DNA of 64,000 bases from assembly GCA_020049775.1 (NCBI GenBank), contig JAGVLO010000006.1:2666-66665 (forward strand), in the 5' to 3' direction. Below, piece after piece: positions 27,829-54,594 of the stretch (position 1 is its first letter; every line of letters starts with the position of its first letter). Both the position numbers and the translations under genes were made by a program. The notes beneath the pieces are model-generated. The model did no database searches. It was not told the origin of the DNA and saw only the letters and a list, made by a program, of their open reading frames with translations. The stretch is from Alphaproteobacteria bacterium. Lineage in GTDB: Bacteria; Pseudomonadota; Alphaproteobacteria; Rickettsiales; SXRF01.

Positions 27829-27856
27829 ATTACTTGGTATTGGGTGTGCTGGACGG

Positions 27857-28741: not shown

Positions 28742-28875
28742 GGCACAGCTAAACCCATGAATATCAGCCGGTTAGCGTTATTCGCCGTAGTGTTATTACT
28801 CGGCGCTGCTCATAATTTATTTATAAATCATACCGTATAATGGCTTAATAACTTGTAATATAAACTTAAAGCCGA

Positions 28876-29472: not shown

Positions 29473-29475
29473 CCT

Positions 29476-30018: not shown

Positions 30019-30037
30019 ATTGTCAGCGATGTGCTGC

Positions 30038-36399: not shown

Positions 36400-36581
36400 A
36401 GATTTCTATCATACCCAGCAGCATCATTCCTGACAACAGAAATATTTAATATTATTATATAATTCAATAGATTGTATATAAAATTCATCTGAATTTTTAG
36501 GCAAATTGGCGGATTACGGCTAGTGTCTTGAAAACACCGGTATAATGGCATTGGCCTGTCATATAAACTTCATACGGGCAA

Positions 36582-36617
36582 CATCGACTTTTGCAGCCCT
36601 TTGTTTATAATAGCCGA
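36582..36617 (+). promoter_or_regulatory. Candidate promoter with TATAAT 6 nt before the ATG (possible leaderless transcript).
   Basis: TATAAT at 36606..36611, agccga, then ATG 36618. TCGACT -35-like element at 16-17 nt spacing. Confidence 0.3.
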
Positions 36618-37919: not shown

Positions 37920-37936
37920 CATTTCATATAAGCAGC

Positions 37937-37947
37937 CCATAAAACAG
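37937..37947. repeat. Left copy of the 11-nt direct repeat CCATAAAACAG bracketing GC-rich cassette 1.
   Basis: Exact match to 38448..38458. Confidence 0.8.
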
Positions 37948-37975
37948 AAACCCCACAACCCTTGCGGGTGTGGGG
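37941..37975 (-). terminator. Intrinsic terminator of GC-rich orphan gene 1.
   Basis: On the minus strand: CCCCACACCC-gcaa-GGGTTGTGGGG (10-bp GC-rich stem, one bulge) followed by TTTCTGTTTT. It begins 30 nt after the stop. Confidence 0.7.
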
Positions 37976-38004
37976 TTCTGCTGCTCATTGCTGAGCAAGT
38001 TCGA

Positions 38005-38334
38005 TCACTTGTTGCCGATCTCCAAGTAGAAGACGGCGCAGGGCACGTCGCCGTGCTTGTCCGTGATGTCGGTCAGGCCGTCCTTGTAGACGACCATGTT
38101 GACGACGTGCGGCATGAACAGCTTGTACATGCTGGGCATGAGGTTCGTGGCGAACGCCAACTCCTCGCGGGTGGGCGTGTTCCACGACATGGCCACCCAG
38201 CACTGGTAGCCGCTGTGGCGCACCACGGCCATCACCTTCTTCTCGCCCGCCTCGTCCAGCGCCTTCTTGACGGCGTTGAACGTGGTGAACTCCGGGATCG
38301 GCAGCGCGTCGAACTCTTTCGTCTCGGTGCTCAT
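38005..38334 (-). CDS. Orphan 109-aa protein of unknown function; compositionally foreign (GC3-saturated).
   Basis: ATG with AGAGGA 8 nt upstream and a TGA stop. By manual reading all codons but one (AAA) end in G/C. Local GC is clearly >60% against a mid-40s background. No family recognised. Confidence 0.7.
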   Translation of the reverse strand: MSTETKEFDALPIPEFTTFNAVKKALDEAGEKKVMAVVRHSGYQCWVAMSWNTPTREELAFATNLMPSMYKLFMPHVVNMVVYKDGLTDITDKHGDVPCAVFYLEIGNK

Positions 38335-38348
38335 GGCATCGATCCTCT

Positions 38349-38382
38349 ACCACATTTTAGTGTGGTGTTTAGGACAGTGTCC
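38349..38382 (-). promoter_or_regulatory. Two short palindromes in the leader/promoter region of orphan gene 1 (candidate operators).
   Basis: ACCACA-ttttag-TGTGGT (38349..38366) and GGACA-G-TGTCC (38372..38382), 15-50 nt upstream of the ATG. Confidence 0.35.
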
Positions 38383-38447
38383 GCAAGTTGTTTTCCTCCC
38401 TGACAAGAGAGGATAGTAAAGAAACAACTCGGAACATCCCCAATTTA

Positions 38448-38458
38448 CCATAAAACAG
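38448..38458. repeat. Right copy of the 11-nt direct repeat CCATAAAACAG bracketing GC-rich cassette 1.
   Basis: Exact match to 37937..37947. The two copies are 511 nt apart. Confidence 0.8.
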
Positions 38459-38562
38459 GGCCGCCCAATGTTACGACTTGGTTAAAATACATGAGCAAAA
38501 TCAATTGGCTGAGCCAACATGAAAAAGCCAAAATATTGATTTTTCAGGAAACTGGGAGGAAA

Positions 38563-38637
38563 TGGTGCCGCTTAAGTGATTCGAACACTTGACCTACCGC
38601 TTACAAGGCGGTTGCTCTACCCCTGAGCTAAAGCGGC
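38563..38637 (-). tRNA. tRNA-Thr (anticodon UGU), CCA encoded.
   Basis: RC reads GCCGCTTTAGCTCAGGGGTAGAGCAACCGCCTTGTAAGCGGTAGGTCAAGTGTTCGAATCACTTAAGCGGCACCA. Clean cloverleaf with anticodon loop CTTGTAA. Confidence 0.9.
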
Positions 38638-38726
38638 ACATGGAGGCTTAAAACAGAGTAGCAATTAAGCGAAATGGGGGAAATAATCAATCGTTTGTTT
38701 CTGGCGTTTGTTATCAGAAAAAGGAA

Positions 38727-39296
38727 TCAGCGTGAAATGGATGATGTTTTGTCTTTTTCCTTGTCCTTTTGGGTATCAAGCCCAACCGATTCGCGGAAAC
38801 GGTCCATGTGGTCAGACATGGTTAACATGGCGCCAAGGGCAATACCGCTGACGGTGATGGCCAACCCGATGGCCTCGATTTTCTGGTTGCGATGCAGCCC
38901 TTTCCAGTAATCGGTAATACCGCGCATACCCCATGATTCAAAGCGGCTTTTTACACTCTGCCTGTATGTTTCGTTGATGCCGTGGATTGCGGTAGAAAGA
39001 TTAACTGCTGGGTTGTGCTTTGCTTCATCCATGACGGCCTTGATGGCAGTGTCCTGAATCGTTTGCAGATCAACGAAATGCTTCCTTTTGGCAAAGTTGG
39101 TGTAGATGCTGCGGCGGATGGACGCATCGCCCACATAATAGCCAACAGCCGCCGAAATAGGATAGGCGACGATATTGAGCATGCGCTCCCACATCGGCAA
39201 TTTTTCTTTTGCCGGTGGCTGGGTTGTATCCTGCGTTTTGGTGGTATTCGTATCGGCCATTTTACGTCCTTGGGTCGCGATTATGCAGGGTAGCAT
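38727..39296 (-). CDS. Hypothetical membrane protein.
   Basis: 189-aa ORF (alternative ATG at 39260, MADTNTTK...) with two hydrophobic helices. No family recognised. Confidence 0.45.
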   Translation of the reverse strand: MLPCIIATQGRKMADTNTTKTQDTTQPPAKEKLPMWERMLNIVAYPISAAVGYYVGDASIRRSIYTNFAKRKHFVDLQTIQDTAIKAVMDEAKHNPAVNLSTAIHGINETYRQSVKSRFESWGMRGITDYWKGLHRNQKIEAIGLAITVSGIALGAMLTMSDHMDRFRESVGLDTQKDKEKDKTSSISR

Positions 39297-39380
39297 TACA
39301 GGGCAGGGTGGTCAATTCCTTAACAACTAACAACGCAGGCGGGAAAATAATTGAAAAAAATATAAATAACAGCCTGTTAT

Positions 39381-40769
39381 TTATTCGCTTCGGTACTCAC
39401 CTTCGCTTAGCCAGGTGCGGTGGTTAGCAGGCTTGCCGAAATAATAGCCCTGCATGAAATCTACGCCCATATCCATCAGGATTTTGGTGATTTCACCGTT
39501 TTCTACGAACTCGGCGACAGTTTGCAGCCCAAATCCTTGCGCAAAATCGAGCAGGGTTTTGACGAAGAACTGGTTGTCGGCGCTGTGGGCAAGGTCTTTG
39601 ATGAATACGCCGTCGATTTTCACCATATCCACCGACAATGCCTTCAGTTGTCGGAAAGAAGTATAGCCGGATCCGAAATCGTCGAGCGCAATCTGCACAC
39701 CCATGGCCTGCAGGGACGCGACGAAGAAAGCGGTACGCCGCAAGTCGCGATGCACAGCGGTTTCGGTGATTTCCACAATCAGCCGCTGGGCGACATCGGG
39801 CGAATCCTTGAGCAGGCTGGATATCGTATCAAGCCACACGGGGTTTTCCGTGGTCATGTTCGATACGTTGAACGCCAGTATCACCTTGGGGTCGTGGCGC
39901 AGTTCCTGAATCACCATTTCCATTACCATGGTGTCGATGAGATCGATAAGGCCCATTTTTTCCGCGATCGGAATCAGTGCGCCGGCAGAGCTGATCTTAC
40001 CGGTCTGGTTGACCAGTCGTAAGAGCGCTTCGTAATGCGCAGTTTCACCGGTGGTGCTTTTAATGATTGGTTGGTAAGCGAGGCGCAGGCGCTTTTCCTT
40101 GAATGCTTTGAACAGGTAATTGGCTAACCCCATCTGCTGGCGACATTGGCCGGCTTCCAGGCGAGTCATTTCATAAGTGCGGTAGGGGCTGCTCTGGGTG
40201 CTGTTGACGGCGACATAGGCTTTGTCGAGCGCGTCATTGGCGCTGGTGGTTTCCAGCGGGAAGCTGACGATGCCGATGGTGCCGATGATGTATAATGCGG
40301 CAGTGGCAAAGCTGTCGCGGCCAAAATTCTGGATGGTGTTGTGGATGCGGCGTGCAATAAGCGCGGCGTCTTCGGGATAGCTGTTGGTGAGGATAATGCC
40401 AAGCTGGTCGCGCTGCAGGCGGTGTACGGTTTCGCCTGGCGACAGCATGGATTCAATCATCTTGGTCAAGTCGTGGATAACGATTTCCGACGTGTCATGG
40501 CCGTAGGCGTTGATAATCATCGACAGGTTGCTGATGGATACAATCAGCATAGAACCCGAGGTATGCGATGCAATAACGTCTTGTATGGTTTTTTCCAGCA
40601 GACCTACGAATTCGGGGGGATAAAAATTGCTGCCGGGCATGTTCGAGGGCTGGCGCGACATGTCATCCACGATGTCTGAAAGCGGGGTAGATGCCACAGG
40701 CTCATTACCCGTGGTCAGCGACGTGGTGGTATCGGTGATTGAACTATGCGAACTTTCCCTAAACAGCAT
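39381..40769 (-). CDS. c-di-GMP signalling protein: degenerate GGDEF domain + EAL phosphodiesterase domain.
   Basis: EAL-domain motifs YQPIIK...HYEALLRL, EITE, DDFGSGYTSFRQLKALSVDMVKIDG and QGYYFGKP. The preceding ~170 aa are GGDEF-like but lack a clean GG(D/E)EF. Confidence 0.8.
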   Translation of the reverse strand: MLFRESSHSSITDTTTSLTTGNEPVASTPLSDIVDDMSRQPSNMPGSNFYPPEFVGLLEKTIQDVIASHTSGSMLIVSISNLSMIINAYGHDTSEIVIHDLTKMIESMLSPGETVHRLQRDQLGIILTNSYPEDAALIARRIHNTIQNFGRDSFATAALYIIGTIGIVSFPLETTSANDALDKAYVAVNSTQSSPYRTYEMTRLEAGQCRQQMGLANYLFKAFKEKRLRLAYQPIIKSTTGETAHYEALLRLVNQTGKISSAGALIPIAEKMGLIDLIDTMVMEMVIQELRHDPKVILAFNVSNMTTENPVWLDTISSLLKDSPDVAQRLIVEITETAVHRDLRRTAFFVASLQAMGVQIALDDFGSGYTSFRQLKALSVDMVKIDGVFIKDLAHSADNQFFVKTLLDFAQGFGLQTVAEFVENGEITKILMDMGVDFMQGYYFGKPANHRTWLSEGEYRSE

Positions 40770-41088
40770 CCCAACCCTTTGGCCGAAGCCTCAGCCTTAA
40801 TTTTTTATGGGGTTTTGCCCCTTTAAAATCCCAGTCTTTATTCCCGTTGCATACAAAAGCTTGATAGGGCTTGTGTCTGCTGCATTAACCATCTTCCCAG
40901 AAAGTAGTTAACGTTTATTGAAGGCAGTGCCGGAAAATGGCCCCAAAAATCAATGTTTTCACGATGATGCCACGGTCCAAAACCCAGCATTCAGGATAAC
41001 AATAAATGGTAAAGGGTTGGTTTATGGAGTTTTATTTAATTATTATAGATGGTTGCATACGGAAAATAGCTGTATCTATATGATACGG

Positions 41089-41946
41089 CTAAAAGAAAAC
41101 GCTTAAAAAAGCGGCAAAAACCAACCAACCTAATTTTGTATTCGAAACAAAAATGCGCCTGCAGGATGCTGGATCGTCGAGATTGACATGGCATAGTTGC
41201 CAGCCTAGCTGCAACATTACGCCGATGAGCAAAATGAAGAACCATATAGCGCTGCCAACCAGCCACGCCGCCGCCATCCAGCCGGACAGTGCCAGCAGGT
41301 AAAACAGGCCCACGGCTTTTTTGGTATATTCGCCCAGTCGCAGGGCAGTGGATTTTACTCCGATCCGCGCATCGTCCTTTTTGTCTTGATGGGCGTAGAT
41401 AGTGTCATAGCCCAGCGTCCAGAAGACGCAGCCCACATATAAGGCGATCGCGGGTGCATCCACTGTGCCGCGTACGGCCGCCCAGCCCATGAGCGCTCCC
41501 CAGTTAAATGTCAGGCCAAGGAAGAGCTGCGGCCACCAGCTTATGCGCTTCATAAACGGGTAGGAGACCACGGGCAGCAGCGAAAGCGCAGCCCACAGCG
41601 TCACGACTTCACCCAAATGCAACGCAATGGCGGCAGAAGCTAGCAGCAGCAGCGCCAGCAATGCCAGCGCTTGCTTTACGGACAGTTCGCCGCTAGCCAG
41701 CGGGCGGGTGCGCGTGCGCTCCACCTGCTTGTCGAATTCGCGGTCGGCAATATCGTTGATAATGCAGCCGGCGCTTCGCATCAGCACTGCGCCAAGCGCA
41801 AACAGCGCGAGCAGTGGCAGCGAAGGATTTCCCCCTGACGCCAGCGCGATTGACCACCAGCACGGCCATAACAAAAGCCATATGCCTACTGGCTGGTGCA
41901 GGCGCATCAAGCGAAAATAAGGGGAAATGATGGCAGACAGAGACAA
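41089..41946 (-). CDS. ubiA: 4-hydroxybenzoate polyprenyltransferase (UbiA family).
   Basis: RLMRLHQPVGIWLLLWPCWWSIAL...NDIADREFDKQVERTRTRPLASGELS. The likely TTG start at 41946 has GGAAGGA upstream, with an alternative ATG at 41907. The 481-aa ORF in the track is an artefactual upstream extension. Confidence 0.85.
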   Translation of the reverse strand: MSLSAIISPYFRLMRLHQPVGIWLLLWPCWWSIALASGGNPSLPLLALFALGAVLMRSAGCIINDIADREFDKQVERTRTRPLASGELSVKQALALLALLLLASAAIALHLGEVVTLWAALSLLPVVSYPFMKRISWWPQLFLGLTFNWGALMGWAAVRGTVDAPAIALYVGCVFWTLGYDTIYAHQDKKDDARIGVKSTALRLGEYTKKAVGLFYLLALSGWMAAAWLVGSAIWFFILLIGVMLQLGWQLCHVNLDDPASCRRIFVSNTKLGWLVFAAFLSVFF

Positions 41947-41985
41947 CTTTACATTATTCCTTCCGGCGTTTAGCGTGTGCGCAGT

Positions 41986-42747
41986 ATGCACGTCACAAAA
42001 CCTAAAATACGCCTGTTTGTCAACGAACCGTTCCGCGCGGGGGCGCTGCTTGCGCTTGGATCTGGGCAATCGCACTACTTGTCGCATGTCATGCGCTGCC
42101 GTGCGGGTGATGCTGTGGCCGTGTTTAACGGCAGCGACGGGCAGTGGCGTGCGGAAGTGCAAGATATGGGTAAGAAGTCGGTGACGCTGTTGCTGCGCGA
42201 CCAGATGGAGAAACAGAAATCCAGCCCCGATATATGGCTGGCCTTCGCACCCATCAAAAACAAAACAGAGCTGGTGGTGGAAAAAGCTACCGAGCTGGGG
42301 GCAAGCGCATTGCTTACAGTATTCACGCGCCATGCCGTGGTGCGCAGCGTGAACATGGATAAATTGCAGGCGCACGCCATAGAGGCAGCGGAACAATGCG
42401 AACGCCATGATGTACCGCGCATCGAACAATACAAGGACCTTGGTGCGTTGCTTTCCGCATGGCCGCAAGGACGCATATTGCTTTATGCTGATGAAAGCGG
42501 CGCCGGCGAGGACTTGAAAACAATGCTTCCGCAACTACCTAAAAGCAGCTATGCCATACTTATCGGGCCAGAAGGTGGCTTCGCTGCCGAAGAACAACAT
42601 ATACTGCGGCAGGCAGCCTTTGTCCGTCCGTTCTGCATGGGGCCGCGTATATTGCGTGCTGATACGGCAGCGGTAGCAGCGCTTGCCTGCGTGCAGGCAT
42701 GGTTGGGTGACTGGCAGGAAAAACCACATTTTGAGGCGGCAGGCTAA
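41986..42747 (+). CDS. rsmE: 16S rRNA (uracil1498-N3)-methyltransferase.
   Basis: RLFVNEP...GDAVAVFNGSDGQWRAEV...IWLAFAPIKNKTELVVEKATELGA...ILIGPEGGFAAEE...LGPRILRADTAAVAALA is canonical RsmE. Confidence 0.85.
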   Translation: MHVTKPKIRLFVNEPFRAGALLALGSGQSHYLSHVMRCRAGDAVAVFNGSDGQWRAEVQDMGKKSVTLLLRDQMEKQKSSPDIWLAFAPIKNKTELVVEKATELGASALLTVFTRHAVVRSVNMDKLQAHAIEAAEQCERHDVPRIEQYKDLGALLSAWPQGRILLYADESGAGEDLKTMLPQLPKSSYAILIGPEGGFAAEEQHILRQAAFVRPFCMGPRILRADTAAVAALACVQAWLGDWQEKPHFEAAG

Positions 42748-42750
42748 ACA

Positions 42751-44013
42751 ATGGCAGCAATACTGGAACAATTAAAGGCGTTGAACGAAGCGCGTGGTGA
42801 AGATATCGAACGCTGGTTTGCGATCAAGCGTGCGCAGGCTGTACCATTTCTCTATACGTCGGTGGATTTACGCCATTCCGGACTGCGCCTTGTGCCGGTG
42901 GATACCAATTTATATCCGGCGGGTTTTAACAATCTGTCACCGCGTGCGCGTATGCGTGCTTCGCGCTTTTTTGTACGTTTTCTTACCGATCGCTTTCCGA
43001 ATGCAAAGCGTGTATTGATTGTACCGGAAAACCACACGCGCAATCTTGGTTATCTCGAAAATCTTGCCGTATTGCAGGACATCCTCACTGAATCAGGCAT
43101 GGAAGTGCGTATCGGCAGCCTTATCGCCGAAGCCGGAAAGCCCATTGAGCTACAGTCGGTATCCGGCCGCAAGCTGCTGGAACAGCCTATGAAGCGCGAT
43201 GGCAACGCGTTGCAGCTGGGAGACGGGTTTACGCCCGATATCGTGGTGATGAACAATGACATGACGGCGGGCGTGCCGCCGCTTTTGGAAGGTGTGTCGC
43301 AGCCCGTATTGCCACCGGTGAGTATGGGCTGGTGGCGCCGCCGCAAGAGCGTACATTTTTCTGCATACCGCACGCTGGTGGAAGAATTCGGCGCGGCATT
43401 TAACCTCGACCCATGGCTGCTATGCGCCGAGTTCCATGCCTGCGGGCGCGTGGATTTCAAGGAAAGCACGGGGCTGGACTGTGTGGCCAAGGGCATCGAA
43501 AAAGTACTGTCTTGCGTGCGTGAAAAATACAAGCGCTACGGCATTACCGAAGATCCGTATGTGTTTATCAAGGCCGACAGCGGCACGTACGGCATGGGCA
43601 TTATGACGGTGCGCTCACCGGAAGAAATTCTCGAACTCAACAAGAAAAACCGCAACAAGATGCAGGTGATAAAAGAAGGTGCGCGCGTCAGCGAGGTGAT
43701 TATTCAGGAAGGCATTCCAACGGCTGATATCGTTGCCGGAAAACCTGCCGAGCCGATGGTGTATATGATAGACGGCGTGCCTATTGGCGGCATGTTCCGC
43801 GTCAATGGCGAGCGCGACGCGTTTGGAAATCTCAATGCGTCAGGCATGGAATTTACCGGCATGTGCGACGAGGTGGAACAGGATGTTTGCGGCGAATGGA
43901 AATCGGTGCAGGATTGCCATTTTCGCTCCTACGGCATTGTGGCAGCGATTGCAGCGTTGGCCGCTGCACGTGAGGATTACAGCCAGTCCTTAAGCCTGAA
44001 GGCGTGCAGCTAG
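42751..44013 (+). CDS. Glutamate-cysteine ligase of the small proteobacterial 'GshA, T. ferrooxidans-type' family.
   Basis: FLYTSVDLRHSGLRLVPVDTNLYPAGFNNL and a ~420-aa length match my recollection of that family. Needs an HMM check. Confidence 0.55.
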   Translation: MAAILEQLKALNEARGEDIERWFAIKRAQAVPFLYTSVDLRHSGLRLVPVDTNLYPAGFNNLSPRARMRASRFFVRFLTDRFPNAKRVLIVPENHTRNLGYLENLAVLQDILTESGMEVRIGSLIAEAGKPIELQSVSGRKLLEQPMKRDGNALQLGDGFTPDIVVMNNDMTAGVPPLLEGVSQPVLPPVSMGWWRRRKSVHFSAYRTLVEEFGAAFNLDPWLLCAEFHACGRVDFKESTGLDCVAKGIEKVLSCVREKYKRYGITEDPYVFIKADSGTYGMGIMTVRSPEEILELNKKNRNKMQVIKEGARVSEVIIQEGIPTADIVAGKPAEPMVYMIDGVPIGGMFRVNGERDAFGNLNASGMEFTGMCDEVEQDVCGEWKSVQDCHFRSYGIVAAIAALAAAREDYSQSLSLKACS

Positions 44014-45246
44014 CGTATTGTACGGCAATATATGTGACACGTCGCCCAGCGCGGTGACGGTGAGTTTTCCCTTGGTGATTTTTGCCCCGAGTTTCTGGAT
44101 ATCGCTTTTGCCGACGGCGTCGATGCGCGCGGAAATGTCCTTGGCGGTTCGGTATTCGCCGAACATCATCAAATGCCTGCCAATCCATCCGGCTACTGTC
44201 TGCGGGTTTTCACGCGCCATCAGCAGTTCCGCTTTTTGCTGGTTCTTGGCGCGTTGCAATTCGGTATCGCTTACCTCATGTGCCATGGCTGCAACCTGAT
44301 CGCACAATACAGAAGACAGCTCTTCCGCACGTTCCGGCGCCGTTCCCGCATAGATGCTTAAGATGCCGCAATCCTCGTATGATGAACCCATGGAATATAC
44401 CGTGTAGGCCAGCCCGCGCTTTTCACGCACTTCTTGAAACAGGCGCGATGACATGCCGCCGCCCAAGATATTGGAATAAAGCTGCAGCGTGTAATATTCC
44501 GGCTCGTGCATGGCTACGGCGGGAAGTCCCATCAGCAGATGCAGCTGTTCCAGCTCGCGCTGGGTGCGTTTGTCGCCGCCCTTGTAGGTGGCCTTGGTGA
44601 AATCCGGCCCAGCTGTCTCTTTCGGCAGGTTGAAATATTCTTTTACCAGTGCCACGAACGCGTCATGGTCGATATTGCCTGCGGCGGAGATGACCAGACG
44701 CGGCGGTTTGTAATGTGTGGCCATATAAGCTATGAGGTCGTCGCGCGTGTAAGAAGCTACGCGTTCTTCGGTGCCTAATATAGACCGACCGAGTGGCTGG
44801 CCGGGGAAGGCGGTGTCGTCGAAATGATCAACAATCAGGTCGTCCGGCGTGTCGTGGTGCATACCGATTTCCTGAATGATAACGTCTTTTTCGCGCTCAA
44901 GTTCGTCCTTGTCGAACACGGAATTCTGCATGATGTCAGCGAGAATATCCACGGCAAGGCGCGTGTTTTCTTTAAGCACCTTGGCGTAATACACGGTCAT
45001 TTCCATCGAGGTATAGGCGTTGAGCTGGCCGCCGATATTGTCGAAAGCTTCGGCGATGTCGCGGGCGCTGCGCGTTTTCGTGCCTTTGAACGCCATATGT
45101 TCCAGCACGTGCGAAATGCCGTTATTCTTATCATTTTCGTAGCGCGCGCCGACACCGGTGGTAACGGTGACTGCCACGCTTTCCACACCGGGAAGCAATT
45201 CGCTGGCCACGCGCAGGCCGTTATCAAGGGTGGTGAGTCTGTACAT
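43990..45246 (-). CDS. M16-family (pitrilysin/insulinase-like) zinc peptidase.
   Basis: Inverted zinc motif GISHVLEHMAFKGT (HxxEH) near the N-terminus. ~420 aa. Confidence 0.85.
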   Translation of the reverse strand: MYRLTTLDNGLRVASELLPGVESVAVTVTTGVGARYENDKNNGISHVLEHMAFKGTKTRSARDIAEAFDNIGGQLNAYTSMEMTVYYAKVLKENTRLAVDILADIMQNSVFDKDELEREKDVIIQEIGMHHDTPDDLIVDHFDDTAFPGQPLGRSILGTEERVASYTRDDLIAYMATHYKPPRLVISAAGNIDHDAFVALVKEYFNLPKETAGPDFTKATYKGGDKRTQRELEQLHLLMGLPAVAMHEPEYYTLQLYSNILGGGMSSRLFQEVREKRGLAYTVYSMGSSYEDCGILSIYAGTAPERAEELSSVLCDQVAAMAHEVSDTELQRAKNQQKAELLMARENPQTVAGWIGRHLMMFGEYRTAKDISARIDAVGKSDIQKLGAKITKGKLTVTALGDVSHILPYNTLAARLQA

Positions 45247-45248
45247 GG

Positions 45249-45770
45249 TTACCGCGCTTTCAGCTGGCGTGAGAATACAAAATCGACAAAGCGGAAATCA
45301 CCCATCTGCACTTCCTGACGGCCGCTTTCGACAAACCCGATATGGCGGTAAAAATCCATGGCGGGGAAGTTCTTCGGGTTGACGAGCAGGCGCATCTCCG
45401 AGGCGGGAGTGAAGGCTTTTTCAAGCACAGCGACGAGTGCCTTGCCAACGCCTTGCCCTTTGCAGGCGGGATCGACATAGATTTTTTTCAGCCACAGCAC
45501 GTCGTCCTCGCGGTAGCCGGACATGAACGCAACCGGACGCTCATCAATGCTGGCCAGCCAGAAACGGTGGCCGTTGGTCATCTGTTTTTTCAGGTCGTCA
45601 TGGCTGTACATGCGCTCGAGCATGTTGCTGATATGTTCGGGGAGCAATATGCCGTTATAGGCGACGGGCCAGATAGCGTGGGCAAGCTGCGAGATAACAG
45701 GGATATCCCGCTCGTCCGCCGGACGTATCGACAATCCGGCATCTATGGATTTGGCGTGCCGGCTCATCAC
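45249..45770 (-). CDS. GNAT-family N-acetyltransferase.
   Basis: Acetyl-CoA-binding motif ...IYVDPACKGQGVGKALV.... 173 aa. Confidence 0.7.
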   Translation of the reverse strand: MMSRHAKSIDAGLSIRPADERDIPVISQLAHAIWPVAYNGILLPEHISNMLERMYSHDDLKKQMTNGHRFWLASIDERPVAFMSGYREDDVLWLKKIYVDPACKGQGVGKALVAVLEKAFTPASEMRLLVNPKNFPAMDFYRHIGFVESGRQEVQMGDFRFVDFVFSRQLKAR

Positions 45771-47161: not shown

Positions 47162-47175
47162 GGGTACTTCAGACT

Positions 47176-48669
47176 TCAGACTAAGTAACGTTTTTCAAGG
47201 TGGCTCTTGTATATCGCTACATCCAGCGTTTGGCCAGTGGCTTGTTTAAGCAGTTCCGCCGAGGAAAGTTTAGAGCCTTGGGAATGGACATTTTTCTTAA
47301 GCCATTCAAATAAATGGGTAAAATTACCAATGCGCATTTGTTCGCCCATCTCTGGGTTGGTTTTTTTTGCCGCGGCGAAGAGCTGGGCGGCGGTCATAGC
47401 ACCCAGCGTGTAGGTGGGGAAATAGCCAAATGCGCCGTCCGGCCAGTGTATGTCCTGCATACAGCCATTGGCATCCGTATCAGGCTTGACGCGCAACAAC
47501 GCATGCATGGCGGTACCCCATGCTTCCGGCAGGTCTTTGACCGCCAGCTTGCCGGAGATCATTTCTTTTTCCAGCATATAGCGGATAATGACATGTGCAG
47601 GATAGGTGGCTTCGTCAGCGTCAACGCGAATCAGCGACGGTTTGACGCGGGTGACAAGGCGGTAAATATTTTCTGCTTCCCACGCGGGGCCGGACACATC
47701 AAATGTTTCACGCATCAGCGGTGCTGCAAAAATCAGGAAATCCTTGCTGATTGTAAGCTGCATTTCCACTAGCAGCGACTGGCTTTCGTGGAAGGCCATG
47801 CCGCGCGCTTCGCCTACGGGCTGGTTGCGCCATTGCGCTGGCAGGCCCATTTCATACAGCGCATGGCCGGTTTCGTGCATGATGCCAAAAAAGCCGGACA
47901 GAAAATCGGTTTCGTTATAACGCGTGGTCAGGCGCACGTCGCCTGCGACACCGCCGCAGAAAGGATGCGTGCTTTCATCCAGCCTGCCGCGCGTAAAATC
48001 GAATCCCATGCGCTCCATGAATTTGCGGCCGAGCGCTTTTTGCTTGTTTGCCGGAAAGAATCCTGAAATCTCGATAGGCGGCGTGGGTTCTTTGCTCTGG
48101 CGGTCCATCACTTTGGTGATGAAGCCGGGCAAAAACGAGGCGAGGTTATCAAAAATTTTATCTATCTCGGCAGATTTTGCGCCCGGCTCATACTGGTCGA
48201 GCAGTGCATCATACGGCGTGAGCTTCATGGCGTCGGCTTTTGCCTGCGCCGATTCGCGCACAAGTTTCAGGACTTTTTCCTGATAGGGAATGAAGTCGGC
48301 AAAGTTATTGTCTTTGCGTGCCTTGCGCCAGAACAGCTCTGATTCGTGGCAGGCCTTGGTCAGTTCCGACACCAGCTTGGCAGGCACCGAGGTTTCGTGT
48401 TTCCACAGGCGTTTCATCTCGCGCAGGTTGGACTGCTTCCATTCATCAAGCGATGCTTTTTCCGTGTCGGCCATGTCGAACAAATCGGCGAGGCGCGGAT
48501 GCGTAATCATTTCATGCGTGGCTTCGGCAATAGCTGCCAGTTGCTCGCCGCGCACGTCGCCTGCGTTTGCAGGCATCATGGTGGCGTTGTCCCAGTGCAG
48601 GATACTTCCAGCGCCTTTGAGCGCGTAATAGCGGCGGAAGATTGCTTCTAAATCGGTATAGGCGGTCAT
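47176..48669 (-). CDS. M32-family carboxypeptidase (Taq-like thermostable carboxypeptidase 1 family).
   Basis: HETGHALYE (HExxH), HESQS, DRxxYP-like IRVDADEATYPAHV and GxxQDxHW-like GCMQDIHWPDGAFGYFPTY. Confidence 0.85.
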   Translation of the reverse strand: MTAYTDLEAIFRRYYALKGAGSILHWDNATMMPANAGDVRGEQLAAIAEATHEMITHPRLADLFDMADTEKASLDEWKQSNLREMKRLWKHETSVPAKLVSELTKACHESELFWRKARKDNNFADFIPYQEKVLKLVRESAQAKADAMKLTPYDALLDQYEPGAKSAEIDKIFDNLASFLPGFITKVMDRQSKEPTPPIEISGFFPANKQKALGRKFMERMGFDFTRGRLDESTHPFCGGVAGDVRLTTRYNETDFLSGFFGIMHETGHALYEMGLPAQWRNQPVGEARGMAFHESQSLLVEMQLTISKDFLIFAAPLMRETFDVSGPAWEAENIYRLVTRVKPSLIRVDADEATYPAHVIIRYMLEKEMISGKLAVKDLPEAWGTAMHALLRVKPDTDANGCMQDIHWPDGAFGYFPTYTLGAMTAAQLFAAAKKTNPEMGEQMRIGNFTHLFEWLKKNVHSQGSKLSSAELLKQATGQTLDVAIYKSHLEKRYLV

Positions 48670-49385
48670 GGTTTTGCCTGTGATGCTGTTTTTGTGTTTG
48701 GTTCACGGTGGTAGATGATGAACATGATAATGCCGATGATCGCCAGCGAGAACCAGGTGATTGCGTATTGCAGATGGTCGTTGCGCATCTGTACTTTTCC
48801 GGTGTGCGCAATCGGATAGACACCTTTCTGGTAAGGGCCGACAACTTCTACAATCACTGGCGTCAGCTGGATGCCAAGCGCCAGCGACATAGCGGGAATG
48901 TCTTCATAGAACCACACATTTTTTTCCGGATGATTTTCCGGTGAGAAATAACGCTTCACACGCGATGGGCGAATCACGCCGCTTATCACCTGCGCGCCTT
49001 CCGGTTTTGCTTCCTTACCTACCGGGCTGAAGCCCCGGTTGACCAGAATCGTGCGTCCGTCATCATCAAGTACGAACGGCGTGACGATGAAAAACCCGTT
49101 TTCGCTACCGGCGTTTTTCGAGCGCCCTACAAGGTGCAGGCTTTTGTCGTGCAGGAATTTGCCGGTCAGCGTGACATTGCGGAATGCCATGGCGTCAATC
49201 GCCTGCTGGTCTGGCAGGTCCGGTAGGTCGCCCAGTGCAGGAAGAGCCTGTGCTTCGGCGGTGCGTGCTACAATCGCATTTTTCCACTCCATGCGTTGCA
49301 ACTGCCATATGCCAAGGCCAATCAGCAACACCGTCGAAGACAGTATGAACAGGGCAGGAATGAACTGAATACGGCGAAAACGCAT
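48666..49385 (-). CDS. SURF1-family cytochrome oxidase biogenesis protein.
   Basis: N-terminal TM helix + GIWQLQRMEWK...VNRGF...NDHLQYAITWFSLA, then a C-terminal TM helix. Confidence 0.8.
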   Translation of the reverse strand: MRFRRIQFIPALFILSSTVLLIGLGIWQLQRMEWKNAIVARTAEAQALPALGDLPDLPDQQAIDAMAFRNVTLTGKFLHDKSLHLVGRSKNAGSENGFFIVTPFVLDDDGRTILVNRGFSPVGKEAKPEGAQVISGVIRPSRVKRYFSPENHPEKNVWFYEDIPAMSLALGIQLTPVIVEVVGPYQKGVYPIAHTGKVQMRNDHLQYAITWFSLAIIGIIMFIIYHREPNTKTASQAKP

Positions 49386-49522
49386 GAAAAACCTTATAAA
49401 ATACGCTAAAAACGGATAAGAATACTTGAACCTTATAATTTAACGTCTATATTCTCAAGAACTACCTGACAGGGCTATGTAAATACTGGTTACAGAATTT
49501 AACTAATTAACGGAGAAATAGA

Positions 49523-50161
49523 ATGAGCGTTCTGGTTGGCAAATTTGCCCCGAATTTTACGGCTAAAGCAATTATGCCGGATAACAGCATCGAAGATAAC
49601 TTTAACCTTCTCAACTACCTCGGTATCAAGAAAGACCCGACCGGCAAGGTAATAAAGGAAGGTAAAGTCGGTGTGCTGTTCTTTTACCCGCTGGACTTCA
49701 CCTTTGTGTGTCCTTCGGAAATAATCGCATTCAACAACCGCATCAAAGAATTCAAGCTGCGCAAGGCGGAAATCATCGGCGTGTCGGTTGACTCGCATTT
49801 CACCCACCTCGCGTGGAAGCAGACACCGGTTGAAAAAGGCGGCATCGGCAACATCCAGTTCCCACTGGTCGCTGACCTTACCAAGTCGATTGCACGCGAC
49901 TATGACGTGCTGGTCGGCGGTGCGGTTGCGTTTCGCGGAACCTTCCTCATCGATGGTAAGGGCGTTGTGCGCCACCAGATCGTCAACGACCTGCCGCTTG
50001 GCCGCAATGTTGATGAAGCTATCCGCATGGTTGATGCGCTCCAGTTCCACGAACAGCATGGCGAAGTGTGTCCGGCTGGCTGGGAACGTGGCGACGGCGG
50101 CATGAAGCCGACGGCTGACGGTGTTGCCAAATATCTCAAGGCAAACGCCAAGAAGCTTTAA
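49523..50161 (+). CDS. Typical 2-Cys peroxiredoxin (AhpC/Prx1 subfamily).
   Basis: [15 protein letters not shown] (peroxidatic Cys) and GEVCPAGW (resolving Cys). Confidence 0.9.
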
Positions 50162-50213
50162 TTTTTTATTGTAAACTTTTTCAGTGCCAAACTTTTATAG
50201 TGGAGGAATGACT

Positions 50214-50885
50214 ATGCGTACATGGGCTTTGGTTTTTACAGTCGGGCTGGTTGCCTCATCCGTGTGGACGGCAAACCTGCTTGCAAACCAGAGTGCTGCG
50301 CATCATTCCTCCGCTGTAAAAACTACGTCTTCTAAAAAACAGCCATCCACTGCTGAATACAAGACGGCCATGGACAGGATGCATAAACAGATGCACGTTA
50401 CCTATACATGCGACCCTGACCTTGATTTTATTGCTGGCATGATTCCGCATCATCAGGGTGCGGTGGACATGACAGTAACCCAGCTCAAATACGGCAAAGA
50501 CCCAGAAATGATTGAGTTGGCGAAGCTCATTCAGAAATGGCAGAAAGTGGAAATCGGGCAGATGAGTCACCTGCTGAATTTGTGGCGCAAGAATACCAAG
50601 GCTGAAGGCAACAAAGATTGCCCCGCCAAGGCGGAATACGAAAAAGCCATGGAAGTCATGCACCGTGACATGAACATCAAATACACCGGAAATTCGGACA
50701 TTGATTTTGCCCGTGGTATGATTCCGCACCATCAGGGTGCTATCGACATGGCGGCAACGCTGACGCGCTATGGCGCACGTCCGGAATTACGCGCGCTTGC
50801 AGAAGATATTTTCCGCTCGCAGAAACAGGAAATCAAATTGATGCAAGAATGGCTGGACAAAAACGATACCAAGGCTAAAAAATAG
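50214..50885 (+). CDS. Secreted DUF305-family protein (two DUF305 repeats).
   Basis: F(I/A)xGMIPHHQGA(V/I)DM occurs twice. Signal peptide present. ATG 50214 lies 7 nt after GGAGGA. Confidence 0.75.
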   Translation: MRTWALVFTVGLVASSVWTANLLANQSAAHHSSAVKTTSSKKQPSTAEYKTAMDRMHKQMHVTYTCDPDLDFIAGMIPHHQGAVDMTVTQLKYGKDPEMIELAKLIQKWQKVEIGQMSHLLNLWRKNTKAEGNKDCPAKAEYEKAMEVMHRDMNIKYTGNSDIDFARGMIPHHQGAIDMAATLTRYGARPELRALAEDIFRSQKQEIKLMQEWLDKNDTKAKK

Positions 50886-50922
50886 CCCTCCACCAACTTC
50901 TTTCATTCTTAAGAGACCTACC

Positions 50923-51864
50923 GTGACCGAACATCAAACCAAAGTTCTTATCATCGGCTCTGGCGCCGCTGGTTGCACCGCCGCTATTTACGCTGCCCGC
51001 GCATCGCTTAATCCCATCATGGTTCACGGTTTGCAGCCCGGCGGACAGCTGACCATTACGACTGACGTAGAAAATTTCCCCGGTTTTGAACATGCCGTTC
51101 AGGGGCCGTGGCTGATGGAGCAAATGGAAAAGCAGGCGGCACATGTTGGCACAAAAATCATGCACGACACCATCATGAAAGTGGATTTATCCAAGCGTCC
51201 GTTTACGGCCGTAGGTGAGTCCGGCGACAGCTATGTAGCGGAAACATTGGTGATTGCTACCGGCGCTACGGCACGCTGGCTGGGCATGCCCACGGAAAAG
51301 AAATTTGCCGGTTTTGGCATTTCCGCCTGCGCCACCTGCGACGGGTTTTTCTTCAAGGGTAAGGAAGTGTTGGTTATCGGCGGCGGTAACAGCGCGGTGG
51401 AAGAGGCGCTTTACCTCACCAATCATGCAACTAAAGTGACGTTGATTCACCGCCGCGATAGTTTGCGTGCGGAAAAAATCGGCCAGCAGCGTTTATTCGC
51501 GCATCCCAAGATTTCAGTGATATGGGACAGCGTAGTGGAAGAATTCGTTGGTACGGAGAATCCTAATTCTCTCACTGGTGCGCGCCTGAAAAACATCAAG
51601 ACGGGAGCTGTCAGCGATATCAAGGCGGACGGCGCATTTATCGCTATCGGTCACACGCCGAATACGGAATTGTTCAAGGGGGTCGTGACCATGGATGCAG
51701 ACGGATACATCGTGACTACGCCCGGCAGCACCAAGACCAATATTGCCGGTGTATTTGCCGCAGGTGACGTGCAGGATAAAATCTTCCGTCAGGCGGTCAC
51801 GGCGGCGGGTACGGGCTGCATGGCAGCTTTGGAAGCCGAACGTTTTCTGGCGGGCGGGCATTAA
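50923..51864 (+). CDS. trxB: Thioredoxin-disulfide reductase.
   Basis: GSGAAGCTAAIYAAR, redox-active CATCDG, GGGNSAVEEALYL. GTG start. Confidence 0.9.
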   Translation: MTEHQTKVLIIGSGAAGCTAAIYAARASLNPIMVHGLQPGGQLTITTDVENFPGFEHAVQGPWLMEQMEKQAAHVGTKIMHDTIMKVDLSKRPFTAVGESGDSYVAETLVIATGATARWLGMPTEKKFAGFGISACATCDGFFFKGKEVLVIGGGNSAVEEALYLTNHATKVTLIHRRDSLRAEKIGQQRLFAHPKISVIWDSVVEEFVGTENPNSLTGARLKNIKTGAVSDIKADGAFIAIGHTPNTELFKGVVTMDADGYIVTTPGSTKTNIAGVFAAGDVQDKIFRQAVTAAGTGCMAALEAERFLAGGH

Positions 51865-51870
51865 GCCCGC

Positions 51871-52677
51871 CTAGCGCTCAGCTACTGCTGTGCCTACTTC
51901 CTTTTTGGCTTTCATAACATCGCCACGCAATGTACCGTCTTTTTCACGCTTTTCGACTTCTTCAAGTATGTTGCCGGTAAATTTGCCGATGGTCGCTGCC
52001 ATAAACAGGTCCAGGCGATCGGTGGAAACATCTTTTATGCCTACCAATTTGAGGCCTCTGTTTATAACTTCTTTAATAAGAAATTCCTGTGCGCCCTGTG
52101 CGGCGACGGCCATTTCTGCCAGCGGCTTGGCGGCGATATTGGCAGCGATGGTTGCCATTTTTGGGCCGATGACCTCACTCAGCTTTGCCTGTATAGCCAG
52201 TGATATAATCGGTGTTACGATGGCCAGCTTTAATTGTTTGCCTACGCGGTTATAGGCCTCCAGTGCCGCTTCTTCCTGTTCGGGTGTAATTTTACGGTCT
52301 TCTTTTGGAACGTCATTCAGTTTGGCATATTCGCTTAAGGTTTTCAGGTCGTCTTTAAATTGTTGATTCAGCACGTTTGGCAGCGCAGCAAGAATTGCAA
52401 TGCCTATTTGTTTGCTATCAAGCCCAACCCTCGTATCTTTTGCTATTTCGTCAGCAGTTGGTGCGTCGGACTCTGAAATTTCTAACGGCGACGCGCGATT
52501 CAATAGCGCGATGCGGTTGCTTCCTCCCATATGGTTATGCGGCAGTGAATTTCCACGGTTTTGCATCATCAGGAGTCTAAGGTCGTCATCGTCAGATGTA
52601 ATGGACTGAGTGCTATTCATGGCTCTTTGGACTAAAGACAAGGCCGCCTGTTCTTTGGATTTGGCGAAGGCAATCAT
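51871..52677 (-). CDS. Hypothetical protein.
   Basis: 268-aa ORF, helical-looking. No family recognised. Confidence 0.4.
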   Translation of the reverse strand: MIAFAKSKEQAALSLVQRAMNSTQSITSDDDDLRLLMMQNRGNSLPHNHMGGSNRIALLNRASPLEISESDAPTADEIAKDTRVGLDSKQIGIAILAALPNVLNQQFKDDLKTLSEYAKLNDVPKEDRKITPEQEEAALEAYNRVGKQLKLAIVTPIISLAIQAKLSEVIGPKMATIAANIAAKPLAEMAVAAQGAQEFLIKEVINRGLKLVGIKDVSTDRLDLFMAATIGKFTGNILEEVEKREKDGTLRGDVMKAKKEVGTAVAER

Positions 52678-52940
52678 GGAGGGTTCTCCCGTTCGAGTGG
52701 TTTTTATCAGCTATATTACCCTCAAATATGGTAAATAAATATTAATGAAATGTGGAATTATTGGGCGTTTCCAAGGGGCCACTGGAATAAAAAACCTATA
52801 ATATACAGAATTATAATAATATTTTTATAAATGCTTTAGGAGATGAGTGCCTTTTCTTTAGAACGGAGCTGCTTATTTTTATTGCATCGCAGCATAATCT
52901 GGTATAGATAGTCGCCAATCCAAAGAGAGTAACTAAGCTT

Positions 52941-53849
52941 ATGATGGATTGGGATAAATTACGCATATTTCACACGGTTGCCACAGCGCAGAGCTTTACG
53001 CGCGCCGGTGAAATCATGAATCTGAGCCAGTCGGCCATCAGCCGCCAGATAAGTACGCTTGAAGAATCATTGCAGGTGTCGTTGTTCCATCGCCATGCGC
53101 GCGGCTTGATGCTGACCGAGCAGGGGGAAATATTATTCCGTGCCGTCAGCGATATACTCACACGCCTTGCCGCTGTTGAAAACGCATTGCTTGAAAGCCG
53201 CGAGCGCCCACGCGGGCCGTTGCGCATTACGGCTCCGGTTGCCATCGGCACGACATGGCTTACGCCGCATATGCGCGAGTTCTGCGAGCTGTATCCTGAA
53301 ATCAGCGTTAGCCTGCTGGTGGATGACCGCGAGCTGGACCTGACTATGCGCGAAGCCGATGTTGCTATACGCCTATTTCCTGCCAAACACCCTGACCTGA
53401 TTCAGAAACAGCTTATTCGCCTGCAAAATTCTGCCTATGCGTCGAACGATTACCTGCGCGCCTACGGCACGCCCACCAAGCCGCAGGATTTGCAGAACCA
53501 TAAATTGATCGCGTTTGGTGAAGATACGCGCATGCCTTTTGCCGGAGTAAACTGGCTGGTGAAGGCCTGTGAAGAGGCAGGACACGCCGAGGGTCGCAGC
53601 ATGTTCCGTATCAACAGTATGTTTGGCATGCTCAACGCCGTGACCAGCGGGATAGGTATTGCCGGCCTGCCGGATTATATGGTACAGGGCCTGTCCAATG
53701 TGACCCGCGTACTGCCTGATATGAAGGGACCGGTGATTGATGTGTACCTTGTCTATTCCGTTGACCTAAGAAACTCAAAAAGAATTAATGTATTCAAGGA
53801 CTTTTTGGTTCGCAAGCTCTCGGAAAGTGGGCTTACTCGCGCCGCCTAG
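52941..53849 (+). CDS. LysR-family transcriptional regulator.
   Basis: N-terminal wHTH FHTVATAQSFTRAGEIMNLSQSAISRQISTLEESLQVSLFHR plus a substrate-binding domain of ~200 aa. Confidence 0.9.
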   Translation: MMDWDKLRIFHTVATAQSFTRAGEIMNLSQSAISRQISTLEESLQVSLFHRHARGLMLTEQGEILFRAVSDILTRLAAVENALLESRERPRGPLRITAPVAIGTTWLTPHMREFCELYPEISVSLLVDDRELDLTMREADVAIRLFPAKHPDLIQKQLIRLQNSAYASNDYLRAYGTPTKPQDLQNHKLIAFGEDTRMPFAGVNWLVKACEEAGHAEGRSMFRINSMFGMLNAVTSGIGIAGLPDYMVQGLSNVTRVLPDMKGPVIDVYLVYSVDLRNSKRINVFKDFLVRKLSESGLTRAA

Positions 53850-53992
53850 CCATGCGCTTTACGCATGACTCGCATGTAATAATATTAATAGTTAGTTTAT
53901 TTGGCATAGCTATAGTGACGGCATGTAAGTGAGTGCTTTTGTACCACTTCTTTGTTGGGTGCAATGCCCGATAATCCTCCCTGTTATAGCTT

Positions 53993-54021
53993 GCCGAGCC
54001 TTCGTGGCTCGGCTTTTTTTT
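53993..54021 (+). terminator. Intrinsic terminator downstream of the LysR-type gene (A-run on the other side; could act bidirectionally).
   Basis: GCCGAGCC-ttcg-(T)GGCTCGGC followed by TTTTTTTT. Confidence 0.7.
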
Positions 54022-54036
54022 ATCCAGATTTTGGGC

Positions 54037-54063
54037 AAAAAAAACCCCACCTTGCGGCAGGGA
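54037..54063 (-). terminator. Intrinsic terminator of GC-rich orphan gene 2.
   Basis: On the minus strand: CCCTGCC-gcaa-GGTGGGG (7 bp with two G-U pairs) followed by TTTTTTTT. It begins ~28 nt after the stop. It shares the CCCCAC...CTTGCGG core with the cassette-1 terminator. Confidence 0.6.
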
Positions 54064-54090
54064 AAAACCGGAGTTTTTTTTGATGTCACA

Positions 54091-54456
54091 TCACACCGTC
54101 TGCGGGACGTAGTCCGAGTAGAACGCCATCAGCTTGTCGCCGACGGAGAGGTACTCGACCTTGTTGTCGTCGCTGCGGTACACGAGGTGGCCGCTGTTGA
54201 CCATCTCGCCGAGCGCCTGAATGACGCCGCGGACGAAGGGACCGCTGACCATCTGGTAGTAGATGGGGTGCGCGTTCTGCGGGCAGGCCTCCTTCATGTA
54301 CTTGAGGAAGTCCTGCGCCTTGAACTCGCCGAACACGTCGTTGTTGCGCTCCGCGAGGAAACGCACGACGTACGCGGCGACGCACTCCTTCTCACCCTTC
54401 TGGAACGACGAGTTGTTGAACACGCAGCGGACCTGGCTCGGGATGAACGTCGACAT
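54091..54456 (-). CDS. Orphan 121-aa protein of unknown function; compositionally foreign (GC3-saturated).
   Basis: ATG at 54456 with GGGAG 8 nt upstream and a TGA stop. By manual reading all codons but about four end in G/C. The in-frame upstream extension to 54567 has host-like composition and overlaps the putative -10. No family recognised. Confidence 0.7.
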   Translation of the reverse strand: MSTFIPSQVRCVFNNSSFQKGEKECVAAYVVRFLAERNNDVFGEFKAQDFLKYMKEACPQNAHPIYYQMVSGPFVRGVIQALGEMVNSGHLVYRSDDNKVEYLSVGDKLMAFYSDYVPQTV

Positions 54457-54565
54457 CTGCAACACTCCCATGAATGGGGGGTGGTAGCGGTGTGTGAAAA
54501 CACCGCAGGAAACAAACGCTGGATGCACACGCAACCAACGGAAACCCAAAGGGTTTAACATGCTC

Positions 54566-54594
54566 ATTATAGATTAATAATGGTTAACAAACAA
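54566..54594 (-). promoter_or_regulatory. Near-consensus sigma70-type promoter reading toward orphan gene 2.
   Basis: Minus strand: TTGTTT-17 nt-TATAAT (-35 at 54594..54589, -10 at 54571..54566). It gives a ~100-nt leader containing hairpins AAACCC-ttt-GGGTTT (54542..54556) and GCGGTGT-N6-ACACCGC (54487..54506). Confidence 0.4.

Follow-up and report, generated by a model that had tools for sequence, protein, structure and literature searches.

We analyzed a stretch of 64,000 nucleotides (nt) from contig JAGVLO010000006.1 (assembly GCA_020049775.1, positions 2,666 to 66,665), here called the window, with respect to two small genes, c1 and c2, that differ from every other gene of the window in their choice of synonymous codons. 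Both are located on the minus strand. The coding sequence (CDS) of c1 at 38005..38334 specifies an orphan protein of 109 amino acids (aa) that begins with MSTETK and is predicted to be of alpha/beta type. The CDS of c2 at 54091..54456 specifies a protein of 121 aa that begins with MSTFIP and belongs to a family of 90-145 aa proteins. A Shine-Dalgarno (SD) site, GAGGA for c1 and GGGAG for c2, is found 8 nt before the ATG of each gene, and both genes end with TGA. The first-pass annotation of the window had listed the MST start, the TGA stop, the common strand, the SD spacing and similar strings in the two terminators as features shared by c1 and c2, and all of them are present as described. As signs of relatedness, however, the agreement in start (MST) and in stop (TGA) is coincidental, as proteins of the c2 family start with MVT, MHT and other residues and their genes stop with TAG or TAA. 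BLASTP gave no match between the two proteins and hhalign a probability of 1%, so the two families are unrelated.

The G+C fractions at first, second and third codon positions (GC1/GC2/GC3) are.51/.36/.98 for c1 and.56/.33/.96 for c2. Across 31 open reading frames (ORFs) of the window the host GC3 is.56 (standard deviation.08, maximum.71), and c1 and c2 are the sole places in the 64 kb where any 60-codon stretch, in any frame, reaches a GC3 of at least.88. Because GC1 and GC2 of both genes do not exceed host values, the skew is confined to synonymous sites. The proposal that c1 and c2 share an extreme preference for G/C-ending codons, seen in no other gene of the window, and that only synonymous sites are skewed, was thereby confirmed. 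C-ending and G-ending codons are about equally frequent in both genes; in c1, for example, Ala is encoded by GCC 5 and GCG 4 times and Val by GTC 6 and GTG 5 times. A-ending codons form the most depleted class, at.00-.08 in genes of the two families compared to.14-.27 in their hosts.

The upstream neighbor of the c1 unit is a tRNA-Thr(UGU) gene (38563..38637, minus strand; ARAGORN and Rfam), which keeps this position in two related lineages, L001 (Logan SRR11567527) and L082 (one of two metagenomes of the Joint Genome Institute (JGI), the other being L083); the L001 sequence begins inside the tRNA gene. From the sequence and the alignments an extended -10 element (TGgTAAATT) is predicted at 38442..38450 on the minus strand, and the promoter block TTTT(A/G)TGGTAAATT is invariant across the three lineages. 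The 5' leader (38335..38436, minus strand) was folded with RNAalifold from three lineages, which gave 37 pairs. Inside a long 5'-terminal stem, GUUCC.AGUUGUUU / AAACAACU.G.GGAC, sits a variable inner hairpin that is kept in the three lineages through one compensatory and several one-sided changes. In a second stem, GUCCU (38375-38371) pairs with the SD site at AGGAU (38346-38342). The same leader fold recurs in the minimum-free-energy structure of the whole transcript.

The 3' untranslated region (3'UTR) of c1 (37941..38004, minus strand) consists of a hairpin at 37997-37982, an intrinsic terminator stem at 37975-37951 (CCCCACACCC-GCAA-GGGTTGTGGGG) and a U tail at 37950-37941. Both hairpins have GCAA loops. 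The region is 95% identical in three lineages, compared to 74-90% for the CDS and 53-82% for the flanks, and its first hairpin carries a compensatory change from T-A to C-G between the window and L001. It could be a 3'UTR-derived small RNA or a protein-binding module. Pairing of the c1 3'UTR to either leader was no better than that of shuffled sequences.

For c2 a sigma-70 promoter (TTGTTT, 17 nt spacer, TATAAT) is predicted from the sequence at 54566..54594 on the minus strand, and its -10 block and the region upstream are conserved in the related lineages L090 and L091. The 5' leader (54457..54560, minus strand; RNAalifold, three lineages) has 31 pairs, eight of them with compensatory changes. 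It opens with an invariant 5'-terminal hairpin, AAACCC-nnn-GGGUUU (54556-54542), continues with two covarying hairpins and closes with a stem that pairs the SD site GGGAG (54469-54465). Predicted SD accessibility was 0.30 for ten genes of the two families and 0.45 for 55 host genes (P =.004). Searched against Rfam, the leaders gave no match at the gathering threshold or at an expectation value (E) of at most 10, apart from terminator-like noise. The intrinsic terminator of c2 (54037..54062, minus strand) reads CCCUGCC-GCAA-GGUGGGG followed by U8. Its position is kept in L090 and L091 with other loops, and the terminator of a convergent LysR gene (53993-54013, plus strand) adjoins it back to back. 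With its two terminators and runs of A and T, 53993-54062 has the make-up of a bidirectional terminator region.

The common core noted for the terminator stems of c1 and c2 does exist as a string, but kinship between them did not hold. The window contains six copies of the 8-mer CCGCAAGG, the expectation being 2.9, and this number is reached by five of 100 shuffled sequences. The 8-mer amounts to a GCAA tetraloop with its closing C-G pairs, and the c2 orthologues have other loops, which speaks against a related terminator module. The likeness of the two terminators is a coincidence.

Homologues were retrieved by a word-indexed search and by HMMER, run exhaustively against 1.84 billion representative proteins with c1 and c2 joined end to end as the query. 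The former gave the c1 homologue P0002 (82% identity) and no homologue of c2. HMMER added two c1-like proteins, P0004 (60%) and P0007 (42%), and 17 c2-like proteins of 90-145 aa with 31-45% identity. Conservation at the protein level is evident from the c1 motif KDGLxDIxDKHGDxPCAVFYL and, for c2, from F.PSQV..F.NS.FQKGEKE in the N-terminal part and EFY..Y at the C-terminal end. Eukaryotic, viral, phage and plasmid sequences yielded no relative of either protein, JGI metagenome contigs and viral contigs were scanned without a match, and a scan of the GTDB species genomes gave no relative of c1. The window was without match in E. coli genomes. Neither the window nor the retrieved loci contain paralogues of c1 or c2, and two small orphan genes close to the c1-like gene of contig L084 are not c2-like. 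An exact look-up of the AhpC sequence of the window, aimed at the c2 slot of the L083 contig, returned nothing. Searches of the literature by sample accession and by phenomenon gave no description of the c1 or c2 genes. The purT gene of the window is at most 72% identical to that of any of the 185,579 GTDB species genomes, so the source of the window is a lineage that has been sampled little and that we place in the Gammaproteobacteria.

Plus-strand ORFs lie opposite both genes, at 37807..38403 (198 aa) and 53929..54558 (209 aa), and each is longer than the sense gene that it covers. Antisense genes of this kind could constrain the third positions of c1 and c2. However, the lack of A or T at sense position 3 removes the antisense stops TTA, CTA and TCA automatically, and the boundaries of the ORFs are not conserved; in L001 the ORF has 130 aa and starts inside c1. 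The sense proteins, on the other hand, are conserved to 31-42% identity with insertions and deletions among orthologues in multiples of three, and ribosome-binding site, start codon and terminator fit the minus strand. We regard an antisense explanation as very improbable.

The chromosomal positions of the two genes were found to be conserved. An orthologue of c1 sits at the junction of tRNA-Thr and the gene for a 442-aa protein in L001 (82% aa identity) and in L082/L083 (58-60%), where the region is collinear throughout from purT to gshA. An orthologue of c2 sits at the junction of the aspartate aminotransferase and LysR genes in L090 and L091 (41%). The genomes with these syntenic orthologues have 73-80% DNA identity to the window. 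Altogether, orthologues with 41-82% identity and conserved flanks come from five independent samples (Logan SRR11567527 and ERR12040027; JGI 3300072121, 3300072958 and 3300075147). More distant members of the families are found in other contexts on alphaproteobacterial-looking contigs, between thiC and nadD and between ppx and ppk. On L092, L094 and L096-L105, which are of this alphaproteobacterial-looking type, the c2-like gene is always located between ppx and an unannotated gene for 212-250 aa, which is followed by ppk. The family is in these contigs consistently linked to the polyphosphate locus.

A coding sequence with a GC3 near 100% in which C and G endings are mixed looks like the product of naive codon optimization, and engineered, back-translated or codon-optimized DNA had been considered from the first reading, as had contamination and an assembly chimera. 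The diverged natural orthologues at the same loci, with conserved flanks and the same codon regime in independent metagenomes, together with the compensatory changes in the leaders, refute all of these, and we consider their probability to be negligible.

An islet recently acquired at a tRNA gene was likewise considered and rejected, as the relatives have c1 and c2 at the same loci, there is no mobility gene and the composition has not drifted. Between tRNA-Thr and c1 neither an integrase nor another mobility gene is present, and the 3' end of the tRNA gene is not repeated. The c1 unit is bracketed by an 11-nt direct repeat, CTGTTTTATGG (minus strand), at 37937-37947 and 38448-38458, with a spacing of 511 nt. 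One copy lies over the c1 promoter and the other over the U tail of the terminator, and neither is tRNA sequence. Absent from L001 and L082 and with an expectation of about 0.14 in 1.1 kb, the repeat is probably due to chance.

The upkeep of the G/C-ending codons can be followed between the window and L082. For the neighboring genes purT, GGDEF-EAL and gshA, the proteins are 94, 97, and 92% identical, and 48-50% of the four-fold degenerate sites have changed. In c1, with proteins 58% identical, 46% of the four-fold sites have changed, and every change is an interchange of C and G. None of 26 two-fold sites in c1 has changed, compared to 27-40% in the neighbors. Four-fold sites thus turned over without any change of a two-fold site to A or T, which indicates that the G/C ending was maintained in place. 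The GC3 of c1 is 1.00 in L082 and.98 in L001. Each homologue that we examined ranks first in GC3 on its own contig, relative to the other called genes; the values for family gene and host are.79/.52,.86/.59,.89/.70,.78/.40,.76/.62, and.49/.42, the last being from a genome of 43% GC. The excess over the host is small in the last two pairs. From lineage to lineage, GC3 of the two families also moves up and down together: c1 and c2 of the window have.98 and.96, other c2 orthologues have.78-.79, and the values in the GROS21-1 metagenomes are.76 and.86.

Atypical composition is the usual ground for assuming a foreign origin, and a donor of very high GC3 (amoebae, algae or viruses) had been proposed for c1 and c2. 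In the form considered here, a protist, alga or giant virus would have donated the genes, and the relic would have been refreshed by allele exchange. Such a history is consistent with the rarity and patchy occurrence of the families in Gammaproteobacteria and alphaproteobacterial-looking contigs, with the tRNA gene next to c1 and with the exchange of alleles at c1 described below. A relic of transfer would have decayed, though, and the trait therefore appears to be selected. The same loci are occupied in lineages separated by a synonymous divergence (dS) of about 1, and the bias has outlasted this divergence; window and L082 c1 have reached the host level of four-fold divergence, yet neither has a two-fold codon ending in A or T. 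The flanks are host-like and homologous between lineages, so the exchange took place within the clade. Signs of integration at the tRNA gene are missing, as are eukaryotic, viral, phage or plasmid relatives in the collections searched, and GC3 follows the host (.49 to 1.0) instead of being fixed. The proposed donor was accordingly not upheld, and we give little credence to a historical foreign origin.

The bias could also have been that of native highly expressed genes, and this was checked. GC3 is.46-.58 in the genes for L25, AcpP, AhpC and phasin, which use GAG for 1 of 13, 1 of 10, 1 of 10, and 0 of 12 Glu codons, respectively. In c1 and c2 GAG is used for 8 of 8 and 7 of 7. The genes for abundant proteins thus prefer GAA, opposite to c1 and c2, so that membership in a highly expressed class is contradicted. 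Translational optimization was rejected on the same ground and because C- and G-endings are about equal in c1 and c2.

We used a permutation test to assess the predicted folding of the mRNA. Synonymous codons were shuffled within each gene so that protein and codon usage were kept, and predicted folding energies were compared. All ten family CDSs were more stable than their permutations, with z-scores from -1.4 to -5.25 (-3.8, -2.1, -3.8, and -5.25 in the c1 family; -2.3, -1.4, -1.6, -2.0, -2.5, and -3.45 in the c2 family). Twenty-four in-frame host segments that served as controls had a mean z of -0.38 (standard deviation.89; Mann-Whitney P = 1e-5). The value of -3.45 belongs to L106, a c2 homologue with ordinary GC3, in which the excess of folding persists. 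Among the four c1 members, three have an energy of about -0.45 kcal/mol per nt, irrespective of a GC3 of.76 or 1.0, and L001 has -0.39. Compared to dinucleotide shuffles, the whole transcripts have z-scores of -7.3 (c1) and -3.6 (c2). Among c2 members in which GC3 is partial, the positions of the remaining A/T-ending codons keep runs of at least three A/T rarer than codon usage alone would make them (P =.009,.05, and.07). Since stability is similar at different GC3 and in excess at ordinary GC3, folding stability appears to be the trait itself, with G/C endings as one route to it. In E. coli, structure of the CDS correlates with mRNA abundance, and RNase E cleaves at unpaired A/U-rich sites (PMC4619774).

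The proteins themselves evolve fast. The non-synonymous divergence (dN) of c1 is.11-.36, compared to.02-.055 for housekeeping neighbors and.15 for the orphan neighbor, and that of c2 is.52-.58, compared to.11-.13 in its neighbors. The c1 and c2 proteins thus evolve 4-17 times faster than their neighbors. The nominal dN/dS of c1 is about 1 because dS is suppressed. The c1 locus is also a mosaic. Promoter and leader of L001 match L082 (.89-.98; leader.96-.98), while from the start codon of c1 onwards L001 matches the window (.90 vs..74), which indicates that coding alleles were exchanged by homologous recombination within the clade. Over 36560-38590, the leader, the CDS and the thirds of the gene for the 442-aa protein disagree in phylogeny among the window, L001 and L082, and the start codon of c1 marks one breakpoint.

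Recombination at c1 being demonstrated, with dN raised and dN/dS near 1, the cause could be sought in GC-biased gene conversion or in a mutation bias from AT to GC acting locally at a hot spot of recombination, as for mouse Fxy; either would drive third positions to G/C and accelerate protein change. The effect, however, ends exactly at the start and stop codons and leaves leader and 3'UTR at ordinary GC, GC1 and GC2 are at or below host means despite replacement of 40% of the residues, and structure beyond that of permuted codons is not predicted. We consider an explanation of this type to be quite unlikely.

A control at the level of decoding would explain more of the codon pattern. A gene made up of G/C-ending codons can be read throughout by Watson-Crick pairing at the wobble position (G34, C34, I34 tRNAs), and translation of c1 and c2 could be favored upon lack of U34/Q34 modifications or upon loss or cleavage of particular tRNAs, in the manner of modification-tunable transcripts or of a bldA-type gate in reverse. 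The signal is strictly frame-specific and leaves GC1 and GC2 untouched, A-ending codons are the most depleted, c1 and c2 run parallel in intensity within one lineage, as expected of a factor acting in trans, and c1 adjoins tRNA-Thr(UGU). The excess folding in the permutation tests, seen even in L106 with its ordinary GC3, and the avoidance of A/U runs are, however, not predicted, and the tRNA genes at hand are the three of the window. We therefore regard control by decoding as unlikely.

Selection for a compact, self-protected message accounts best for all of the observations at once: a signal tied to the reading frame, C and G that replace each other freely, folding beyond that of permuted codons, A/U runs that are avoided, and protective structures at both ends. 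In our judgment there is about an even chance that c1 and c2 are native orphan genes at fixed positions in an uncultured clade, placed in the Gammaproteobacteria, whose synonymous sites are selected for a stable mRNA. That the G/C-ending codons are a selected property of the mRNA, and not a mark of origin, we hold to be equally well balanced between right and wrong. Synonymous sites, the only free sites of the CDS, would be held at G or C and arranged for exceptional folding stability, which would leave the coding region without A/U-rich single-stranded runs. The hairpin at the 5' end, the leader stem that covers the SD site and the strong 3' hairpins fit the same picture. An untranslated message is exposed to Rho unless it is structured, and one silenced by a covered SD site would require protection of this very kind. 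The c1 and c2 messages may survive without ribosomes, resisting both Rho loading and endonucleases of the RNase E type, whose targets are A/U-rich, and their translation might be held off until the leader opens.

Several observations weigh against selection for a stable message. All structures dealt with here are predictions. The fold is not kept between orthologues, with 6 of 111 predicted pairs common to the window and L082, so that stability as such would have to be selected. To hold 108 of 109 third positions at G or C requires selection per site that is stronger than usual for mRNA folding. Three c2 homologues taken singly give a weak permutation z (-1.4 to -2.0), and c1 of L084 shows no avoidance of A/U runs. 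Finally, the flat GC1 and GC2 despite fast protein change fit selection on free sites but are equally predicted by control at the level of decoding.

Neither c1 nor c2 had a significant match in Pfam, PHROGs, PADLOC or NCBIfam. The possibility of an anti-phage defense or phage identity found no significant match in PADLOC and PHROGs or in phage, plasmid and viral collections. The C-terminal half of c2 has sub-threshold matches to the DDRGK1 winged helix, AspA and MarR (E.02-.9) and further ones to DUF6293_C, MCM5_C, SarA/Rot, DnaD_N, F-93 and ArsR, and may carry a winged-helix domain. AlphaFold2 models made from single sequences were poor, with a mean confidence (pLDDT) of 57 for c1 and 46 for c2, and the c2 model was unusable; Foldseek with the c1 model gave generic alpha/beta matches only (E > 0.1, structural similarity score (TM) about 0.3), which were non-significant and were disregarded. 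Both products are soluble and predicted to be cytoplasmic.

Whether c1 and c2 form one system is a separate matter. Both rare families are present in the genome of the window, and the c1-like P0007 and the c2-like P0025 both come from the GROS21-1 metagenomes of the European Nucleotide Archive, with one shared sample (ERZ19397860). The tetranucleotide similarity of the c1-like and c2-like contigs is compatible with one organism, without being discriminating. The contigs of other lineages end before the slot of the second gene, which sets the scope of this comparison. Cooperation of the two proteins is conceivable but doubtful. A wider proposal would be a class of "armored" messages in which the CDS doubles as a structural RNA, stored silently and immune to Rho and RNases, with the winged-helix and alpha/beta proteins as partners in a system tuned by a trans-acting factor and engaged in some conflict (immunity, anti-defense or host interaction). 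We put it forward as a rather unlikely speculation.

Other features of the window and its relatives were recorded in passing. No Pfam match was found for the 442-aa neighbor of c1 (36591-37919) or for an ORF of 189 aa at 38727-39296. The region 19030-31852 is rich in orphan genes, and five of its ORFs, of 238-1068 aa (19030-20547, 21360-23183, 23669-26875, 27112-27828, and 30038-31852), are likewise without a Pfam match. An intact tRNA-Ser(UGA) gene (8172-8261) is immediately preceded, at 8262-8330 on the minus strand, by a partial tRNA-Ser-like copy, gtggccgagtggtttaaggcagcagtcttgaaagct, which may be the remnant of a duplication or an integration. On L084, two genes away from the c1-like gene, an Mrr-type restriction gene (6561-7739) has a GC3 of.34 in a genome of GC3.62. 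This low-GC outlier is probably foreign.

An extreme GC3 in a genome of intermediate GC is routinely taken as horizontal transfer or contamination, and here it is a maintained native trait. If the inference holds, c1 and c2 call for caution in the composition-based detection of transfer or contamination, and they offer a natural experiment in strong synonymous-site selection for mRNA architecture. Two uncharacterized families of fast-evolving small proteins are also added.

In the Lawrence-Ochman framework, alien genes are known by their atypical GC3 and drift gradually to the composition of the host. Like such genes, c1 and c2 are GC3 outliers and orphans, and c1 adjoins a tRNA gene. They differ in that no drift is seen over a dS of about 1, that they are syntenic in relatives, that mobility genes are missing and that the flanks are host-like. 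GC-biased gene conversion, as described for recombining bacterial genes and for mouse Fxy, has in common with c1 the combination of high GC3, fast protein evolution and recombination. Unlike its products, c1 and c2 are enriched only at synonymous positions of the ORF, and neither the non-coding parts of the tract nor non-synonymous sites share in the enrichment.

The mRNA of type I toxin-antitoxin systems of the hok/sok type is translationally inert, highly structured and long-lived. The compact folded message, the sequestered ribosome-binding site and the stand-alone unit with its own promoter and terminator recall these systems. However, c1 and c2 encode soluble proteins of 109-121 aa and not hydrophobic peptides of less than 60 aa, the 5'-3' fold-back of the hok/sok type was not detected, and no antisense RNA was identified in a search limited to a promoter scan. 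With RNA thermometers and other SD-occluding leaders, c1 and c2 share an SD site paired in a conserved, predicted leader stem. Their leaders are longer and more stable than ROSE and fourU and match no Rfam family.

Stabilized bacterial messages with a 5'-terminal stem-loop are known, ompA being the example. As in messages of this type, a 5'-terminal hairpin and 3' hairpins are present in c1 and c2, and unpaired A/U sites for RNase E are avoided. Selection on synonymous sites for mRNA structure is also known from bacteria, and c1 and c2 resemble it in folding beyond that of permuted codons. The known effect is weak and genome-wide, whereas that in c1 and c2 is limited to two orphan genes, brings 96-100% of third positions to G or C in a genome of GC3 0.56, and is kept across speciation in opposition to the native codon preference.

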